Shown: piece by piece, positions 2,178-13,649 of the stretch
Layout: the number at the start of each line of letters is the position of its first letter
Position numbering within the stretch: the stretch's first letter is position 1
Origin: a virus
Virus genome (UHGV): UHGV-0106931
DNA length: 38,673 bases
Direction: 5' to 3' (one strand)
The notes under the pieces: generated by a model
Told to the model about the DNA's origin: nothing
What the model saw: only the letters and a program-made list of their open reading frames with translations
Databases searched by the model: none
Made by a program: the position numbers and the translations under genes

Positions 2178-3629
2178 TCAATCAAACGTTGTGCTAAGTT
2201 CAATTAAATCGAAATATTGATGAATTTTTAGTTCATTATTTTCAAGTCTGCGTAATGCATATCCCATCTTTAGAAAATTAACTAACGTTTCATCAGCAGT
2301 TAAATATCCCTCTAACCATTGCTCTGGTGTGTCTAAGTGGTGTGAACCAGGAGGAGCCACTTTTATCATAGTTAAAATATTCCATGCTGTTTCTATATAA
2401 TTAATAATTCCTGTGGAAATTTCTTTTTTATTATATGAATTATTATGATAGTTACCTTTATGTTGTAAATATTTTACTTGTGTAGCGGCATAGGATAAGT
2501 CAAACGATAGTTTTATCGAGGCATTGGAGACGGCAGTTGTAATTTTTTCTTTTGATTTTATCCTTGAATAAAGGTCATAATCTTTGAAGTTTAATGTAGA
2601 TAGCATTAACATTAAGTTAGGGTCAAAACTCTTCTCCGTTGTAATTAATATATCGATTAATCTTTCGTATATTTTTATAGCATCTCTCAGGCTCATACTC
2701 ATCGATTGCAAGATCGATGAGCAGTTACTTATAAATGAATTTATATCTGGAGACATTGGCATGAGTTTTTTTCTTAAACTATCAAAATCAGAAATAATAT
2801 TTTCACCAGTTTTTGTTAACAATAAATCTTGAAATTGTGGAGATGGTAACAGAAAACGACGGTCGAAAAATCTACTCAAATAATGGCTGGCGGAAAAGTC
2901 TCGGCCATATAGGACCTTTATCGAGTGCTGCAGTTGTTGCGTATCAGTAGATATTATAAATACAACACCAGGAATATTGAATATGTGTTTTGTGATTTCC
3001 AGAAGGCTGATTGAAAAATCAGGTCTGCACCTGTCAAGCTCATCAATTATTATAAATAATGGTAATTTTTTATTTATACCATCCTTTTGTTTTATATGTT
3101 TAATCCATTCGCCAATTCCGAGTTTAATTGTTTGCACTTTTTTATTTTTTTCCGCATGTATATCTAAAAGTTTTTCAGAAAGACTTTTTGATAAATTAGA
3201 AATGGAGTCTATACCTAAATGTGTCTTAACTAAGCTTTCAATTATAATTGGTGTTGCTGTTTTTAAAAGAGGGCCTATATTTTCGATGGTTTTATTAATT
3301 ACTTTTGTGAATTTATCTGATTGCTCTGTTAATTGTTCTTTAATTGAACTAAATACTGTTAATAATGGATCGTCTGAGAAATCATCTTTCCATGCGTCTA
3401 TATAAACTGTAGGGTGACTGTTTGATATAGTTTTAGCAAATCGCTTTGTAAAGTAAGTTTTACCAGCACCCCATTGTGCATTAATATTTATGACTAGGTT
3501 TGAATTTTCACCTCTGGAAGAACAAACCTCATAAAGATATTTAGCATATTTACCCCTATCTAAGGTATCTGAAGGTAAGTACTCTCCCAAATACTCATCT
3601 TCGTTATTCCATTGCCATTCAATACTCAT
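2178..3629 (-). CDS. KAP-family P-loop NTPase (483 aa), moron between cI and int
   Basis: Walker A NAQWGAGKT and Walker B-like IIIDELDRCRPDF, characteristic of KAP NTPases; markedly AT-rich versus flanking phage genes; start ATG abuts the cI stop (TAAATG). Confidence 0.72.
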   Translation of the reverse strand: MSIEWQWNNEDEYLGEYLPSDTLDRGKYAKYLYEVCSSRGENSNLVININAQWGAGKTYFTKRFAKTISNSHPTVYIDAWKDDFSDDPLLTVFSSIKEQLTEQSDKFTKVINKTIENIGPLLKTATPIIIESLVKTHLGIDSISNLSKSLSEKLLDIHAEKNKKVQTIKLGIGEWIKHIKQKDGINKKLPLFIIIDELDRCRPDFSISLLEITKHIFNIPGVVFIISTDTQQLQHSIKVLYGRDFSASHYLSRFFDRRFLLPSPQFQDLLLTKTGENIISDFDSLRKKLMPMSPDINSFISNCSSILQSMSMSLRDAIKIYERLIDILITTEKSFDPNLMLMLSTLNFKDYDLYSRIKSKEKITTAVSNASIKLSFDLSYAATQVKYLQHKGNYHNNSYNKKEISTGIINYIETAWNILTMIKVAPPGSHHLDTPEQWLEGYLTADETLVNFLKMGYALRRLENNELKIHQYFDLIELSTTFD

Positions 3630-4193
3630 TTATACCTCACTTATAACGCAATGTACTTTTGCAACAGGTTTTATATCATTAATGCCGCATTTAAATGAAA
3701 ATCCCTCTCCAGTAACCATGACTTTTTTAACTGGAATTAGATTGATTTTTTTTATGCTTAATTTTCCTTCTATTTCCACAAGCCACTGACCGTCAGAAAT
3801 AATGACATCTTCTCGATCACAAATATAAATCTGTTGATTAGCTAGTATAGCTAATGGAGATTTTGTTTTTCTCGGTAGTAAGATGGGATCAATCTTGTGT
3901 GTTCCAAGTTCGACGCTGTCTCCATTCTTTAATTCGTGCGTTTCAACATCAATTAACGTTGTTTCAGTATTCTTAATTAACTCACCTTTACCCGAGACGA
4001 GCCAATCAATTGAAATGCCGGTTTCCATCGCACATTGAAGAACCCAATCTGCGGGAAAAATATCACGCATGTAACGTGTCGCCATAGTGCTCTTTGATAC
4101 ACCTAAGTGGTCGCAGAGGGCCTGCCGGGTTGTGAACCCATATGCCTCTACCAAACGTTCAATTACTTTCTTACCACCGCTACTGAAATCCAT
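3630..4193 (-). CDS. cI: CI-type immunity repressor (186 CI-like, 187 aa)
   Basis: N-terminal HTH (TTRQALCDHLGVSKSTMATRYMRD); transcribed divergently from the apl/cII operon; GGAGG RBS. Confidence 0.75.
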   Translation of the reverse strand: MDFSSGGKKVIERLVEAYGFTTRQALCDHLGVSKSTMATRYMRDIFPADWVLQCAMETGISIDWLVSGKGELIKNTETTLIDVETHELKNGDSVELGTHKIDPILLPRKTKSPLAILANQQIYICDREDVIISDGQWLVEIEGKLSIKKINLIPVKKVMVTGEGFSFKCGINDIKPVAKVHCVISEV

Positions 4194-4542: not shown

Positions 4543-4605
4543 TAGATGCCTATTTCGCAAGAAGACACTGAGTTCGATTTTGCGATAAGTTCGGAGTTGA
4601 GAACC

Positions 4606-5115
4606 ATGTTTGATTACCAAGTTTCCAAACATCCACATTTTGATGAAGCCTGTCGTGCATTCGCACTGCGCCACAATCTGGTGCAACTGGCAGAACGTGC
4701 AGGCATGAATGTGCAGATTCTGCGGAACAAGCTGAACCCAGCTCAACCTCATTTATTAACCGCACCAGAAATCTGGTTGCTTACTGATCTGACTGAAGAT
4801 TCAACGTTGGTAGATGGTTTTCTGGCACAGATTCATTGTCTGCCATGTGTACCGATTAATGAGGTAGCAAAAGAGAAACTGCCGCATTACGTCATGAGCG
4901 CAACTGCAGAGATCGGGCGTGTTGCAGCAGGTGCGGTATCTGGTGATGTAAAAACTAGTGCCGGTCGTCGTGATGCTATCAGCAGCATTAACTCTGTAAC
5001 ACGACTGATGGCGCTGGCTGCTGTTTCATTGCAGGCCCGTTTACAGGCTAATCCTGCGATGGCGAGTGCAGTTGATACCGTGACTGGCCTCGGTGCTTCA
5101 TTCGGTTTGCTGTGA
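4606..5115 (+). CDS. cII: 186 CII-like lysogeny-establishment regulator
   Basis: [25 protein letters not shown]...[25 protein letters not shown] closely resembles 186 CII as recalled; start set at MFDYQ, upstream ATG at 4546 possible. Confidence 0.72.
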
Positions 5116-6455: not shown

Positions 6456-7309
6456 GCACCATCCTGAAATGGGCGGGAAATAAAACCGCCATTATGTCCG
6501 AACTGAAAAAACATCTTCCTGCTGGCCCGCGACTGGTTGAACCTTTCGCGGGTTCCTGTGCTGTGATGATGGAAACGGATTATCCCAGCTATCTGGTTGC
6601 GGATATTAATCCTGATTTAATCAACCTCTATAAAAAGGTTGCCGCTGATTGTGAATCGTTTATATCTCGCGCCAGAGTTTTATTTGAGATCGCAAACAGG
6701 GAGGTGGCTTATTACAACATAAGGCAGGAGTTTAATTACTCAACTGAAATTACTGATTTCATGAAAGCGGTATATTTCCTGTATCTCAATCGTCACGGTT
6801 ACCGTGGTTTATGTCGCTATAACAAGAGCGGGCATTTCAACATTCCCTACGGTAATTATAAAAATCCGTATTTCCCTGAAAAAGAAATTCGCGCTTTTGC
6901 AGAAAAAGCCCAGCGAGCAACGTTTATCTGCGCCAGCTTTGATGAAACGCTGGCGATGTTGAAGGCGGGGGATGTGGTGTATTGCGATCCGCCTTATGAC
7001 GGTACGTTTTCCGGCTATCACACTGATGGTTTCACTGAAGATGACCAGTATCACCTGGCATCTGTTCTTGAACATCGATCATCAGAAGGACATCCGGTCA
7101 TTGTTTCTAACAGTGACACATCCCTGATCCGTTCGCTGTATCGCAATTTTACTCACCACTACATCAAGGCAAAACGCAGCATCGGCGTAGCAGCTGGTGA
7201 GAGTAAATCTGCAACAGAAATCATCGCTGTTTCCGGGCCACGCTGCTGGGTGGAATTTGATCCTTCGCGTGGCGTGGATAGTTCTGCTGTATACGAGGTG
7301 CGTGTATGA
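6452..7309 (+). CDS. dam: DNA adenine methyltransferase (Dam family)
   Basis: N-terminal KWAGNK and catalytic DPPY motifs; ATGA overlap with upstream gene. Confidence 0.85.
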
Positions 7310-9720
7310 GTCATGACGATATGAGCAACTCTAGCGGCTTTAACGAGGCCGCTACAGCATTTTCATGGAACGGCCCGAAAAAGGCCATTAACCCTTATCT
7401 GGACCCGGCGGAAGTTGCGCCGGAGTCTGCACTTTTAAACCTGATCACTCTGTACGCTGCCGATAATGAGCAGGAACAGCTGCGCCGCGATGCACTGAGT
7501 GAGCAGGTCTGGGAGCGTTATTTCTTTAATGAATCTCGTGATCCTGTCCAGCGCGAAATGGAGCAGGATAAGCTCATTAGCCGGGCAAAGCTGGCGCATG
7601 AACAGCAGCGTTTTAACCCGGACATGGTCATTCTGGCGGACGTCAGCGCCCAGCCCACCCATATTAGCAAGCCGCTGATGCAACGTATCGAATACTTCAG
7701 CAGCCTGGGCAGGCCAAAGGCTTATTCCCGCTATTTGCGTGAGACGATTAAGCCATGTCTGGAGCGACTGGATTGTGTACGTGACAGTCAGCTGTCTGCT
7801 TCTTTCCGTTTTATGGCAAGCCATCAAGGGCTGGAGGGCCTGCTGATCCTGCCTGAAATGAGTCAGGACCAGGTGAAACGCCTGTCCACCCTGGTAGCTG
7901 CGCATATGAGCATGTGCCTTGATGCAGCTTGTGGCGATTTGTATGCCACCGATGACGTTAAGCCAGAAGAAATCCGCAAGACATGGGAAAAGGTGGCGGC
8001 GGAAACCCTGCGTCTGGATGTCATCCCACCTGCGTTTGAGCAACTCCGTCGGAAAAGAAACCGCCGTAAACCCGTACCCTATGAACTCATTCCGGGTTCG
8101 CTGGCGCGTATGTTGTGCGCCGACTGGTGGTATCGGAAATTATGGAAGATGCGTTGCGAATGGCGGGAAGAGCAGTTGCGTGCTGTCTGCCTGGTCAGCA
8201 AAAAAGCATCTCCCTATGTCAGCTATGAAGCCGTGATGCATAAACGTGAGCAGCGCCGTAAGTCGCTGGAGTTTTTCCGTTCTCATGAACTGGTGAACGA
8301 AGACGGCGACACGCTGGACATGGAGGATGTGGTAAACGCCAGCAGCAGCAACCCTGCGCATCGCCGCAATGAGATGATGGCCTGTGTTAAAGGTCTGGAG
8401 CTTATCGCGGAAATGCGCGGTGACTGCGCCGTTTTCTACACTATCACCTGTCCGTCACGTTTCCATTCCACGCTCAACAACGGCAGACCCAACCCGACCT
8501 GGACAAATGCGACGGTAAGACAAAGCAGCGATTATCTGGTCGGCATGTTTGCTGCATTTCGTAAGGCAATGCACAAAACCGGGTTGCGCTGGTATGGCGT
8601 GCGGGTGGCTGAGCCGCACCATGACGGTACTGTGCACTGGCATCTCATGTGCTTCATGCGTAAAAAAGACCGCCGCGCCATCACTGCATTACTGCGTAAG
8701 TTTGCCATCCGTGTAGACCGCGAGGAGCTGGGCAACAACACGGGGCCACGCTTTAAGTCTGAGCTGATTAACCCGCGCAAAGGAACACCGACAAGCTACA
8801 TCGCGAAATACATCAGTAAGAACATTGACGGGCGTGGTCTGGCCGGCGAGATCAGCAAGGAAACGGGTAAATCCCTGCGTGATAACGCCGAATACGTTAA
8901 TGCCTGGGCGTCTCTGCATCGTGTTCAGCAGTTCCGCTTCTTTGGTATTCCGGGACGTCAGGCTTACCGTGAACTTCGCTTGCTGGCTGGTCAGGCGGCA
9001 AGGCAACAGGGTGACAAAAAAGCAGGTGCGCCGATACTGGATGACCCGCGCCTTGATGCCATCCTGGCTGCTGCTGATGCTGGTTGTTTTGCCACCTACA
9101 TCATGAAGCAGGGCGGCGTACTGGTTCCCCGTAAATATCACCTTATCAGAACCGCTTATGAAATCAACGAAGAGCCGACCGCCTATGGCGATCACGGCAT
9201 TCGTATTTATGGCATCTGGTCACCCATTGCAGAGGGCAAGATCTGCACTCATGCAGTGAAGTGGAAAATGGTTCGTAAGGCCGTTGACGTTCAGGAGGCG
9301 GAAGCCGACCAGGGCGCTTGCGCCCCTTGGACTCGTGGCAATAACTGTCCCCTTGCTGAAAATTTGAACCAACATGAGAAAGATGAATCAGCAGATGGGG
9401 ATACCAGAACGGACATTACCTGCATGGATGACAAGGAATTGCACGATTACCTGCACAGTATGAGCAAAAAAGAGCGCCGGGAACTGGCAGCAAGATTGCG
9501 CCTGGTTAAACCGAAACGGCGTAAAGACTACAAACAGCGAATTACAGAGTATCAGCGTCAGCAGCTCGTCTATGAACTGAAGTCCAGAGGATTTGATGGC
9601 AGCGAGAAAGAGGTCGATTTGCTCCTTTGCGGTGGCAGTATTCCGTCAGGAGCAGGCCTGCGTATCTTCTATCGGAACCAGCGTTTGCAGGAAGATGATA
9701 AGTGGCGGAACCTGTATTAA
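7306..9720 (+). CDS. A: Replication initiation endonuclease gpA (rolling-circle, P2/186 A family)
   Basis: 804 aa protein following the early operon in the P2 gene A position; HxH-containing region (TVHWHLMCF) consistent with a HUH-type nickase. Confidence 0.82.
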
Positions 9721-9812
9721 TCACGCGGGTTAACAATTCGTGCTCTTAATAATACCAGGCATATCAGGCTGATGAACGTAAAAAAACGTTTTACATCAGT
9801 AAGATTATTATA

Positions 9813-9832
9813 TACTGTAAATATAAACAGTG
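9813..9832. promoter_or_regulatory. LexA (SOS) box TACTGTAAATATAAACAGTG overlapping a sigma70-like promoter
   Basis: Perfect CTGT-N8-ACAG with AT-rich spacer; TTTACA (9790-9795) and TATACT (9811-9816) hexamers; lies 42 bp upstream of the ATG at 9874. Confidence 0.6.
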
Positions 9833-9873
9833 GTTATATGTACAGTATTGCGTATGGTGTTATAGGAGGAAAG

Positions 9874-10062
9874 ATGCAGGACTATTTTTTGGAGTCTTTG
9901 AAGCTCCAGCGCATTGATTTTTTTCTTAAGCTTGTAGCGGCTAGTGAGTGTAGTGATGAAGAGAAGGGGCTAGCTCTGCAGTGGGTTTCTGAATTGACTG
10001 ATGAGTTGATGGCGAAAATTCGAAGCCATGAATACAGTAGGTCGATGGATGTAATCAGTTGA
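9874..10062 (+). CDS. Small SOS-controlled protein (62 aa); candidate Tum-like antirepressor
   Basis: AGGAGG RBS 5 nt before ATG; downstream of the LexA box; position matches 186 tum (between A and cos). The longer ORF from 9772 would contain the operator. Confidence 0.4.
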   Translation: MQDYFLESLKLQRIDFFLKLVAASECSDEEKGLALQWVSELTDELMAKIRSHEYSRSMDVIS

Positions 10063-10095
10063 GCTTGTTTCGTTAGGACTTGATAAGGGAACCGA

Positions 10096-10116
10096 AAAGG
10101 GGCATTAAGCCCCTTT
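10096..10116. terminator. Bidirectional hairpin between the convergent small ORF and the lipoprotein gene
   Basis: AAAGGGGC-attaa-GCCCCTTT stem-loop. Confidence 0.45.
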
Positions 10117-10129
10117 CTCATAAGTTGAT

Positions 10130-10429
10130 TTAGTTGTTACCCAAAGAGCCGGCCATGGCTGCATATTTAATTTCTTCGCTGGGTATTTCAGGATGTAGTT
10201 GAATTTGCCTGATGATATAGCCAGGAACTTCTTCACTCCACAGTTTCGCCGCGTCCTTACAGACCTTATACGCGAAGTCTCTATTCTCAAAGGCATAGGA
10301 TTTTCCGTATGCATATTGCTGACAGGCATGAACATAAGCTCCGAAGTCGCCGTCTTTATCTGGCAAAGCACATCCAGCTAAGGCTATGATGATTGCTACT
10401 AACGTAAAGGAGAAAGTTATACGTTTCAT
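10130..10429 (-). CDS. Small secreted lipoprotein (99 aa)
   Basis: Signal peptide with lipobox (LVAIIIALAGC); AT-rich moron region. Confidence 0.6.
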   Translation of the reverse strand: MKRITFSFTLVAIIIALAGCALPDKDGDFGAYVHACQQYAYGKSYAFENRDFAYKVCKDAAKLWSEEVPGYIIRQIQLHPEIPSEEIKYAAMAGSLGNN

Positions 10430-10537
10430 GGTCTCTTTCTAAGCGTTTAGCATTATTTAACTAAGGGGTATCTGCCGTGATTTGGTAGTCCCTGATATAT
10501 ATTCTCAGGGACTATGCTGAAGTAGCTTTAATTTTGA

Positions 10538-11344
10538 TTATTTAGAAAGGTACTTATCTCTAAGTTGATTCAGTCTGTCAGCATCGCGTTCTGAAAACTC
10601 GGCGTCACCATAGATCGATTTCCCATCTGCGTCTTCAAGGCCAATGACTGTGACGGTAAATATAGCATCAGCCGGAACTTTAAGTTTTCCCCAATCAGAG
10701 TATCTATTAGGGGCTAATTTCCAGTTGGCTTTCTCACCTGGTTCCAGACCTCCAGAAATTTTATAGTTGAAGACGTCAGAGAACCAAGGGACGCTTCTTC
10801 CTGGGCTGGCAATAACTCCTTTGAAGAATACTCTGGCAACCGCTTTGTCTGTTCCGTTTTCAACGCTAATATCCAGAATTGGCTGATCATTGCCGTAATC
10901 CTCTTTCTGGAAATAAAAACGGGAACGTTCGACCTTGAAGGCTTTCATTTTTTCCGCAGCCTGTGTTGCAGAGGTTTGTTTGGCTTCCAGTTCTTTTATT
11001 TCTTGCAGAGCCTGTTCTTTCTCTCTCTTCTCACGCTCAAGGCGAATAGTTTGTGCGTAATTTATAACCTCATCACCAGTTTTACCTTCCAACGCTGACT
11101 TAATTTTTGTTTCGTAGACGTCCCCAGAAGACGTTCCAGCCTGCATTAGCTCTCTCATGTTGATTTGGCTAAAGGCAACGACTTTAACTGCATCATCAAA
11201 CTGAGCTTTTTTATCTGCAGGTAAGGACTCTCTTACTTTTTGAATGGACTCTTTCATCGACTGATCGCTTGATGCATCGATCTTCGGTTTGTCACAAGCA
11301 GTAAGCAGCAGAGCAAAAGCAATTACGCCAGTTAATTTCTTCAT
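10538..11344 (-). CDS. Lipoprotein (268 aa) with central charged coiled-coil-like segment
   Basis: MKKLTGVIAFALLLTAC lipobox signal peptide; start taken at the internal ATG (11344) that begins the signal peptide. Confidence 0.6.
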   Translation of the reverse strand: MKKLTGVIAFALLLTACDKPKIDASSDQSMKESIQKVRESLPADKKAQFDDAVKVVAFSQINMRELMQAGTSSGDVYETKIKSALEGKTGDEVINYAQTIRLEREKREKEQALQEIKELEAKQTSATQAAEKMKAFKVERSRFYFQKEDYGNDQPILDISVENGTDKAVARVFFKGVIASPGRSVPWFSDVFNYKISGGLEPGEKANWKLAPNRYSDWGKLKVPADAIFTVTVIGLEDADGKSIYGDAEFSERDADRLNQLRDKYLSK

Positions 11345-11540
11345 ATCCCTATCCCAATCGTAAAAAAACAAGGCTAATCCTAACAGGATTAGCGGGCATG
11401 ACAAACTCATAGCCATATAGGTGTGCTGTATAAATTAGCGGGATGAGAAAGCCTGCACAGACCCTCATGTTGAAACTTGATTTTAGCTCAAAAGAGCTGA
11501 CACTAAATAACTGCGCGGAATAATGCTCCACTTTCGGTTA

Positions 11541-11980: not shown

Positions 11981-12676
11981 ATGGCTTGCAGTAGGGGAAA
12001 AGCTTCTCCAAACGCTAATACAGTTAGACGGCTTTTTGCCAGCTCAGGTGGCTTTTGCCAAAATCCACAATGCTTGCAACCTTTGTTTGTTGATGCTGGC
12101 GACAAAAATATAACAATTGGAGAACTTGCTCACATTTTTAGTGCCATTGATAATGGACCTAGAACCAATGCTGATCTAACTGATGAGCAGAGAGGTCATT
12201 TTGACAACATTATTCTTCTATGTGCTAATTGCCATACGACAATTGATAAGGCAGAGGAACATTTTACTGATGAAATTATCCGTTCTTGGAAAAACGGCCA
12301 TATTGATAAAATAAATGCAACCTTTGGTGTTAAAACATATGACAATCGAGAATCTGTTAGACAGGAGTTAGAAAAATACTTCAGAGAAAACAATACCATT
12401 TTTGTAACATATGGACCAACCCAAGAGAACAGCGTTGACCCTGAAAATCCAAATGCAGAAGTATGGTTAAGAAAAGTACAATCTCATATCTTACCCAACA
12501 ATAGAAAAGTACAGCGACTGGTTGAACAAAACTATCACCTCATGAGTGAAGATGAGAAGAATGTTTTTTCAAAGCTTTGTGTTCATATAGATGACTTTGA
12601 ATCAAAACATTTGGGCTTAACCGATGCTAATGGTAGTAGGTTTCCAGAAGCTGCATCTGAACTATTTATAGGATGA
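11981..12676 (+). CDS. HNH-motif nuclease-like protein (231 aa), cassette gene 1
   Basis: C-x2-C (CQNPQC), conserved His (ELAHIF), Asn, and CANCH arranged as in HNH endonucleases; AT-rich; stop overlaps next start. Confidence 0.65.
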   Translation: MACSRGKASPNANTVRRLFASSGGFCQNPQCLQPLFVDAGDKNITIGELAHIFSAIDNGPRTNADLTDEQRGHFDNIILLCANCHTTIDKAEEHFTDEIIRSWKNGHIDKINATFGVKTYDNRESVRQELEKYFRENNTIFVTYGPTQENSVDPENPNAEVWLRKVQSHILPNNRKVQRLVEQNYHLMSEDEKNVFSKLCVHIDDFESKHLGLTDANGSRFPEAASELFIG

Positions 12677-13332
12677 ATCCAATGAGCATAAATGCGAGTG
12701 AAGGCTATATTTCATGGATGGCAGGAAAATTACAAGAAAATAAATGTGTCGAAAATATAGAGGTGATAGGTGATGGTACTTTAGTGATTAATACTACACA
12801 GGGTGACACCTATTTGATCGGGGCAATCAATACTGGCCGGATAACATGTCCTGAGATAAATGAATACCTAGACAATAAAAAAATTGATTTTCTATCAGTC
12901 AAGGGAGGTGTTGAATTTATCTCTGGTGATGCAATGAGATTACTAGAACAAAAGAAAATAGGAGTGGGTTCATTTGGGCATATTGCATCTTCTTTAAGAG
13001 CTAATAATCCGCTTGAGCATCTTGATAAAGAGCATTTGTTTATAAATAGAGTGTTCAATCAACATTCACATGTAAGCTCTGTAGAGCGAGAAACCAACAA
13101 AAAATATAGACTTAAAAGACGTGGCTTGGCGGACTTAGTTATTATCGCTGCGAATGATTATGATATGACAGCGGGTTCTGTAAGAGATGCGATAGGGTTG
13201 CATGGCAATTGTGATGTTGTTTTTTCCTCCAATCCTAATGGACGATTGACGACTCAGGCAAAAGAGGCTGCTCAAAGTATCGGGGTGGAGCTTTACAAGT
13301 TGGGTGATTTATTACGAAGAATTTCACGGTAG
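12673..13332 (+). CDS. Hypothetical protein (219 aa), cassette gene 2
   Basis: ATGA-coupled to gene 1; no domain confidently recognised; a weak Rx6H (RANNPLEH) is noted only as a possibility. Confidence 0.6.
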   Translation: MNPMSINASEGYISWMAGKLQENKCVENIEVIGDGTLVINTTQGDTYLIGAINTGRITCPEINEYLDNKKIDFLSVKGGVEFISGDAMRLLEQKKIGVGSFGHIASSLRANNPLEHLDKEHLFINRVFNQHSHVSSVERETNKKYRLKRRGLADLVIIAANDYDMTAGSVRDAIGLHGNCDVVFSSNPNGRLTTQAKEAAQSIGVELYKLGDLLRRISR

Positions 13333-13649
13333 TGAATTTTAAACATACGATTGAATCGATCTGTGATGTTATTATCCATCATAGTTTATATATGGTGGAT
13401 GTATATGTATTTGGGTCAGCATTAAAGAGTTTTTGCGATGCAAATGATATTGATATGCTTGTGATAGGTGATTGTGTCGATGGTTTATTATTGAAGCGAA
13501 AGCTGCGGGAGCTTGATTTATTTGTTCCTGTTCATATTATTACAATGACGCATTCAGAAGAGTATGAACTGGGATTTATTAAGTCTGTTGGCACTTCTCT
13601 GCTTGTTGTTGATAAAAGCGTTAAGATCAATTTTGTATGTGGTATATAA
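13332..13649 (+). CDS. Minimal nucleotidyltransferase-like protein (about 105 aa), cassette gene 3
   Basis: FGS-x9-DID (YVFGSALKSFCDANDIDMLV) fits the Pol-beta-type NTase motif; GTG start overlapping the upstream stop (TAGTG), alternative ATG at 13392. Confidence 0.5.
   Translation: MNFKHTIESICDVIIHHSLYMVDVYVFGSALKSFCDANDIDMLVIGDCVDGLLLKRKLRELDLFVPVHIITMTHSEEYELGFIKSVGTSLLVVDKSVKINFVCGI

Follow-up and report, generated by a model that had tools for sequence, protein, structure and literature searches.

Known SOS-induced antirepressors of 186-like and other prophages

A described relative of the locus studied here is found in phage 186, where induction proceeds through the LexA-regulated p95-tum (PMC7708051). 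The 186 Tum protein binds the CI repressor and blocks its binding to DNA (186 record; PMC7708051). In the 186 record p95, a LexA site and tum are annotated after gene A, and the statement of the initial annotation of our locus that LexA-repressed tum induces 186 from the equivalent position agrees both with this record and with the literature (PMC7708051). Tum of 186 is 146 aa long, as the initial annotation had stated, and its C-terminal half is a fused DinI-like part. The tum genes of Fels-2 and PSP3 are each interrupted by a stop codon, which separates an upstream half from a DinI half (Lemire et al. 2011; PMC3121763). The upstream half of PSP3 carries antirepressor activity according to a personal communication that is cited second-hand (PMC3121763). 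The PSP3 record lists a 60-aa TumA, described as 'similar to 5' end 186 tum; UV induction of prophage', together with a DinI-like TumB. The primary paper on Fels-2 tum is that of Bunny et al. 2002. In Salmonella TA100, the mutagen MX was reported to induce the Fels-2 operon STM2726-STM2727-STM2728 along with other operons; the best transcript rose 14.8-fold (p 2.8e-5) and all transcripts changed in the same direction (PMC2225428). Our search of the literature found no experiment on the exact protein described below or on Fels-2 STM2728 alone, and a text search for TumA/TumB returned no relevant papers.

A comparable control logic is described for GfoA/GftA of the Gifsy prophages and AntC of N15, which are LexA-repressed small antirepressors that bind non-cleavable repressors and are often found in one operon with a dinI homologue (PMC3121763). 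Compared by description, our locus resembles these systems in its control logic but differs from them in that they act on another repressor family and have the reversed gene order, with dinI first (PMC3121763).

The DNA analysed here is a stretch of 38,673 nucleotides, the virus genome UHGV-0106931, which we refer to as the window. We consider it highly probable that positions 9780-10062 of the window hold a prophage SOS operon reduced to one gene, in which a LexA-repressed TumA acts on a 186-type CI repressor. The system itself is already known from 186, PSP3 and Fels-2, and the gene has been left unnamed in the databases. Minor details that appear to be new are a colicin-type double operator, a natural form of the module that lacks tumB, and a TumA that is uncoupled from CI divergence; these would add modestly to the 186 induction model.

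Prophage context of the locus

The window is a 186/Fels-2-type (Peduoviridae) prophage. Its integrase gene (1065-2111) and the gene for a 186-type CI repressor (3630-4193), the presumed target of TumA, are located on the minus strand, and the genes for CII (CP76; 4546-5115) and the 804-aa replication protein A (7306-9720) are located on the plus strand. The CI repressor matches Phage_CI_repr (3.5e-30) and Phage_CI_C (7.3e-24) and aligns with the CI proteins of 186, Fels-2 and other phages, while a Pfam search of this CI gave no match to the Peptidase_S24 domain. Therefore, by analogy with 186, an antirepressor is expected to be needed. As in 186, which has the same type of CI, the SOS promoter and its gene follow directly after replication gene A. 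The initial annotation had proposed that this region is the prophage SOS-induction switch, a proposal that is probably correct given that a LexA operator lies over the promoter of a small gene after gene A and that the prophage encodes a 186-type CI with no S24 match.

Promoter, ribosome-binding site and primary LexA operator

The top-scoring LexA-type site of the window (box 1, unstranded) was found at 9813-9832 and reads TACTGTAAATATAAACAGTG, in agreement with the CTGT-N8-ACAG operator that had been annotated at these coordinates. The description of this box as perfect holds for the eight core bases and does not hold for the full 20-mer, where 17/20 positions are identical to the E. coli consensus TACTGTATATATATACAGTA; an equal match was observed in 0/100 shuffles. 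The 38.7-kb window contains two CTGT-N8-ACAG cores, where 0.4 would be expected. LexA motif scoring, which had been suggested as a check, ranked box 1 first among about 38,650 window positions with a score of 24.0, and none of 11.6 million simulated positions reached this score. The weight matrix was derived from 26 E. coli LexA sites that were compiled by hand and not taken from a database; these training sites have a median score of 20.1 and a minimum of 12.7, and box 1 exceeds the median.

The -35 hexamer TTTACA is read directly at 9790-9795 on the plus strand and belongs to a p95-like promoter. The probable -10 hexamer is TACTGT (9813-9818, plus strand), which is separated from it by a 17-nt spacer and doubles as the left arm of box 1. 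An alternative -10 hexamer, TATACT (9811-9816, plus strand), would leave a spacer of 15 nt. In an alignment of 24 loci anchored on the LexA box, a TTyACA-like hexamer was observed to be conserved 17 +/- 1 nt 5' of TACTGT, whereas the two bases that complete TATACT were not conserved across these loci. Furthermore, the 186 record annotates p95 with TTCACA as its -35 and TACTGT as its -10. On these grounds, we read the promoter as TTTACA-17 nt-TACTGT, an arrangement shared with 186 p95, in which the left arm TACTGT of the LexA box likewise forms the -10 and a TTyACA -35 is located 17-18 nt upstream. The initial annotation had placed the operator over TATACT; this hexamer is indeed present and overlapped, but it is TACTGT that forms the conserved -10. 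Box 1 overlies the -10 whichever of the two hexamers is chosen.

Both promoter hexamers are weak. A generic promoter and terminator scan of 9600-10500 called nothing, and the missing promoter call is explained by TACTGT matching TATAAT at only 3/6 positions and by the 15-nt spacer of TATACT. An A-tract on the plus strand (9780-9786) adjoins the -35 hexamer upstream; most homologous loci of the alignment have 5-7 consecutive A residues 3-4 nt 5' of the TTyACA hexamer, and the tract is possibly an UP-like element. The Shine-Dalgarno sequence AGGAGG is located at 9864-9869 (plus strand), 4 nt ahead of the ATG at 9874, so that the annotated TTTACA and AGGAGG-ATG elements on the two sides of the operator were both recovered. 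Most of these loci have a GGAGG-type motif at the equivalent position.

The position of the start codon decides whether the operator lies in front of the gene or within it. The reading frame is open from an upstream ATG at 9772, and the resulting long form has been adopted in several records of phages and in many automated annotations; it is a 96-aa ORF that in some records carries the 'levan regulatory' label and would have the LexA box inside its coding region. We rejected this ORF as the real gene and regard it as extremely improbable. Family members of many genera start at an M-x-D motif and the extension falls outside the conserved alignment, while its extra 34 codons overlie the conserved -35, -10 and LexA boxes. 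The AGGAGG is appropriately placed for the ATG at 9874, RefSeq annotates the 62-aa form, and in other clades the box is found just 36-41 nt before the start codon.

A second LexA box and the colicin-type double operator

A feature absent from the initial annotation is a second LexA box (box 2, unstranded) that overlaps box 1 at 9828-9847 and reads CAGTGGTTATATGTACAGTA. Its matrix score of 15.1 ranks third in the window and is not unusual among the training sites' own scores, within whose range it falls; 0.06 sites of this quality would be expected in a window. The cores of the two boxes share one base, G 9830, and together the boxes form an 18+18-nt palindrome at 9812-9848. The inner half-site of box 2 is poor, with GTGG in place of CTGT. 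The +15 register of box 2 was nevertheless observed to be kept, with differing spacer bases, in loci from Escherichia, Salmonella, Enterobacter and Leclercia. The operator of Fels-2 is identical to ours with the double box included. Other clades, together with 186 and PSP3, have a single LexA box that is closer to the start codon, and the two overlapping boxes therefore set the locus apart from 186.

Two LexA boxes with cores that overlap by about one base characterize the operators of the colicin type, and the boxes at 9813-9832 and 9828-9847 are arranged in this way. A 50-nt query made from the operator matched 1110 plasmids, most of them mobilizable. The two plasmids that were inspected are small ColRNAI plasmids in which the match lies just 5' of an operon for a cloacin/colicin-type bacteriocin, immunity and lysis. 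In the cloacin/colicin operator of one ColRNAI plasmid, box 2 is identical to ours at 20/20 positions and box 1 at 17/20. The likeness to the colicin/cloacin operons thus includes two 20-bp boxes with one base common to both cores, and in both cases the controlled gene would commit the cell to lysis. Unlike the plasmid operator, where by our own reading of the sequence the promoter hexamers are located upstream of the boxes, the left box here overlaps the -10. At two overlapping SOS boxes, two LexA dimers are bound, repression is very tight and a small fraction of cells express the operon; the colicin literature describes the binding of the two dimers as cooperative and the induction as tight and late (PMC2994835). 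By analogy, the double operator of the prophage would give a tight, late, colicin-like induction.

The 62-aa protein as a homologue of the antirepressor half of Tum

The tumA-type gene (9874-10062, plus strand) encodes a protein of 62 aa, MQDYFLESLKLQRIDFFLKLVAASECSDEEKGLALQWVSELTDELMAKIRSHEYSRSMDVIS, which is homologous to the antirepressor (N-terminal) part of 186 Tum and stands on its own. The initial annotation correctly described the ORF as much shorter than 186 Tum and suggested that it may therefore represent a different antirepressor class. On the evidence of sequence profiles, we identify it instead as the antirepressor half of Tum standing alone, and not as a new class. The difference in length is due to the DinI-like half, which in this lineage has a gene of its own.

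The comparison with Tum, which had been listed as a check, was carried out with a family alignment of 28 sequences (consensus MxDLFxESxxLQRIxLxxRLVAxxxCSxxDKELALxWxxELT). Using hhalign, the family profile gave a gapless alignment with 186 Tum in which residues 3-46 of the one correspond to residues 3-46 of the other (probability 95%, E-value 3e-8). The two proteins also meet in the PHROG families. The 62-aa protein matches phrog_698 (1e-37), phrog_8554 (1.6e-8) and phrog_1993 (2e-3), and 186 Tum matches the same three families in the opposite order, phrog_1993 (1e-22), phrog_8554 (1e-11) and phrog_698 (2.4e-5, positions 7-44 to 7-44). TumA of PSP3 matches phrog_1993 at 3e-32 and so belongs to another PHROG than the protein studied here (1993 against 698); its direct match to the family profile is weak (E 0.0035, probability 9%). 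In pairwise comparison the 62-aa protein and 186 Tum are about 20% identical, and BLASTP gave no alignment between them. Given the null BLASTP result and the weak match of PSP3 TumA, profiles are the basis of the homology to Tum. A full-library HMMER search returned short proteins only and no DinI-fused form, and the link to Tum is therefore invisible to single-sequence searches.

These null results would also be expected if the protein belonged to an antirepressor class that has no relation to Tum and were found at the place of tum by coincidence. Searches of Pfam and PADLOC, and of PDB sequences with the family profile, likewise gave no family for the ORF, and PHROG 698 carries the label 'unknown function'. 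The gapless profile alignment and the reciprocal PHROG matches in the same register argue against such a coincidence, the gene order and promoter architecture are those of 186 and PSP3, and the Fels-2 gene has already been treated as the upstream half of tum (PMC3121763). An unrelated class is thus highly improbable.

Other properties of the protein are in keeping with a genuine, conserved gene product. Its gene is the same as STM2728 of Fels-2, whose product is 95% identical, and is the counterpart of PSP3 tumA. Relative to Enterobacter, 26 synonymous and 9 nonsynonymous codon changes were counted, mainly at third positions, and this predominance of synonymous changes points to a real gene under purifying selection. 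The AlphaFold2 model is a two-helix hairpin (H2-23 and H28-61) with a pLDDT of 86.5; a Foldseek search of this model against the PDB gave generic helical hairpins only, all with E-values of about 0.9 or higher, and the fold is thus uninformative.

Distribution of the module and the missing tumB

The promoter and ORF are 92-94% identical at the DNA level in Fels-2 and in many P2-like phages of Klebsiella, Escherichia and Salmonella, and the TumA protein is 90-100% identical in these phages. In every such phage the DNA similarity stops at the tumA stop codon (window position 10063). The module was found in 1105/5426 complete E. coli genomes (about 20%), B-strain derivatives included. At the species level we collected 28 Enterobacterales loci with protein identities down to 40%. 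All 28 belong to P2/186-like prophages and have the tumA-type gene flanked by gpA on one side and by the portal-side cargo on the other; in 25 of them a LexA box with a score of at least 18 is found about 70 nt or less upstream. Of the three loci with no strong box, one is on a truncated contig, one has an insertion and one has a box that lacks 1 nt through a deletion. Conservation of the ORF in related prophages, on which the initial reading had been made to depend, is therefore observed together with conservation of its operator.

The names under which the gene is recorded do not reflect this distribution. The PHROG 698 label aside, other records call the product 'hypothetical' or a 'levan regulatory (domain) protein', and some (for example L002, 2550-2840, and P0065) call the 96-aa ORF, which runs through its own promoter and operator. 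The 'levan regulatory' and 'unknown function' labels look like annotation artefacts. In E. coli and in the P2-like phages of Salmonella and Klebsiella, 'TumA-type SOS antirepressor' would be a suitable annotation of the gene.

In Fels-2, PSP3 and C41(DE3), a dinI-like tumB begins about 3-10 nt past tumA. The window has no such gene: no similarity to DinI/TumB was detected within 600 nt downstream of tumA, and across the whole window all E-values were above 0.2. Homologues of 186 orf97, which 186 carries downstream, and of STM2726 were likewise absent from the window. The module is accompanied by tumB in 1083 (about 96%) of the approximately 1125 E. coli genomes in which it was counted, and the tumA junction of the window is common to only 20/5426 E. 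coli genomes. However, 21/28 of the related loci also have no DinI gene downstream, and a stand-alone TumA is therefore a normal state in the family. The loss of tumB would change only the modulation of the SOS signal and not antirepression.

The loss of tumB could also be taken as a sign that the module is an inert relic, intact in sequence but carried by a prophage that cannot be induced or present as a copy that is not expressed. P2-like prophages of E. coli are often defective, and the copy in C41(DE3) has a broken cII and a broken A. In the window, by contrast, int, cI, cII and the 804-aa gene A are full-length, tumA is under purifying selection and the operator is identical to that of the inducible Fels-2. 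Many family members are also naturally devoid of a DinI gene. We therefore consider a relic very unlikely and the prophage probably inducible by DNA damage.

Proposed induction mechanism

By analogy with 186, the locus is predicted to work as follows. In an undamaged cell, LexA would occupy the double operator, with box 1 covering the -10 and box 2 covering the expected transcription start, and this occupancy of both boxes would keep the TTTACA-17 nt-TACTGT promoter off. Upon DNA damage, active RecA would lead to the self-cleavage of LexA, the promoter would fire and the 62-aa TumA would be made. In the manner of PSP3 TumA and of the N-terminal half of Tum in 186, TumA would then bind the non-cleavable CI (3630-4193) and stop its DNA binding. 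With CI off the DNA, the lytic promoter would be released.

The step for which another reading has to be weighed is the binding of TumA to the CI of this prophage, which we consider to be the probable one. The gene might instead be SOS-controlled with a product that does not act on CI and serves another damage-response job, directed at RecA, cell division or another phage, while the prophage is induced by other means. Many LexA-controlled prophage genes are accessory, and a near-invariant TumA beside a varying CI would also fit a conserved host target. On the other hand, the protein is homologous to that part of Tum which, according to the 186 record, inhibits DNA binding by CI. The CI of this prophage has no match to a self-cleavage domain, no other antirepressor candidate and no DinI/Tum homologue was found in the window, and the type of TumA follows the type of the CI N-terminal domain. 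A target other than CI is thus unlikely, and CI is retained as the target in what follows.

TumA constancy and CI divergence

TumA was observed to be 90-100% identical in prophages where CI is only 40-46% identical to the CI of the window (loci L001, L007, L008, L037 and L039-L042). Such a near-invariant TumA beside a variable CI would not be expected of a specific binder, except if the contact were made to the conserved N-terminal domain. When the two domains of CI were compared separately with those of the window, the N-terminal domain was found to be 64-73% identical in prophages that have this type of TumA, as against 36% in 186, whereas the C-terminal domain was 24-36% identical in these prophages and 33% in 186. 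TumA and the CI N-terminal domain thus vary together in type, and 186 also has a divergent Tum; the covariation signal, drawn from six comparisons, is weak. Since the N-terminal domain of CI alone is conserved, these comparisons suggest that TumA contacts CI through this domain.

More speculatively, the TumA of this clade might be a broad-range antirepressor that works across immunity types through the CI N-terminal domain, with the double operator causing it to fire late and in few cells and with a further LexA-type box upstream of int (2129-2148) tying excision to the same signal. We put this forward as a tentative idea that is less likely than not to hold. If it were true, TumA from one damaged cell could switch on several Fels-2-like prophages together.

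Flanking genes and other sequence elements

A GC-rich hairpin, AAAGGGGC-attaa-GCCCCTTT (10096-10116, unstranded), is located between tumA and a convergent gene for a 99-aa protein. It is a perfect 8-bp inverted repeat and is present in the minimum-free-energy fold. The stronger T-run is found on the minus strand, and the terminator scan made no call here; the hairpin is probably a two-way terminator. An Rfam scan of 9400-10700 gave no RNA family. The place of tumB is taken by convergent minus-strand genes (10130-11416) that encode the 99-aa protein (phrog_7666) and a DUF6694 lipoprotein.

The interval from tumA to the portal gene also holds three plus-strand cargo genes (11981-13649), in the order HNH-type nuclease, 219-aa protein and 105-aa protein. 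The nuclease (231 aa) matches PADLOC PDC-M68A at 2e-29 and also resembles HNH effector domains. The 219-aa protein gave no matches, and the 105-aa protein has a weak similarity to nucleotidyltransferases. This cargo is probably an anti-phage defence island in a known P2 hotspot. The probable inducibility of the prophage by DNA damage bears on the mobility of the adjoining defence and cargo genes.

In addition, a gene for a KAP-family NTPase (2178-3629, minus strand; 483 aa with a P-loop; Pfam 9e-38; phrog_8614) is inserted into the interval from cI to int, which is empty in 186 and Fels-2. In related prophages, DUF4041 or other P-loop genes are found there, and the interval looks like a variable cargo/defence slot.

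The LexA-type box at 2129-2148 (context 2085-2178) is located on the minus strand, reads CACTGGTCAAACATACAGTT and scores 18.2, with 0.01 such sites expected per window. It lies within the 66-nt gap that leads from the KAP NTPase gene to int. On the minus strand, the segment in front of int consists of TTGACC, 17 nt that contain the box, TTAAAT, and a hairpin (GCCCTC/GAGGGC) with TTTTTT, followed by the int ATG. This stretch may serve as a promoter of int under SOS control. The box and the hairpin are kept in two other E. coli prophages that have different cargo upstream of int, and the segment upstream of int matches about 1100 E. coli genomes.
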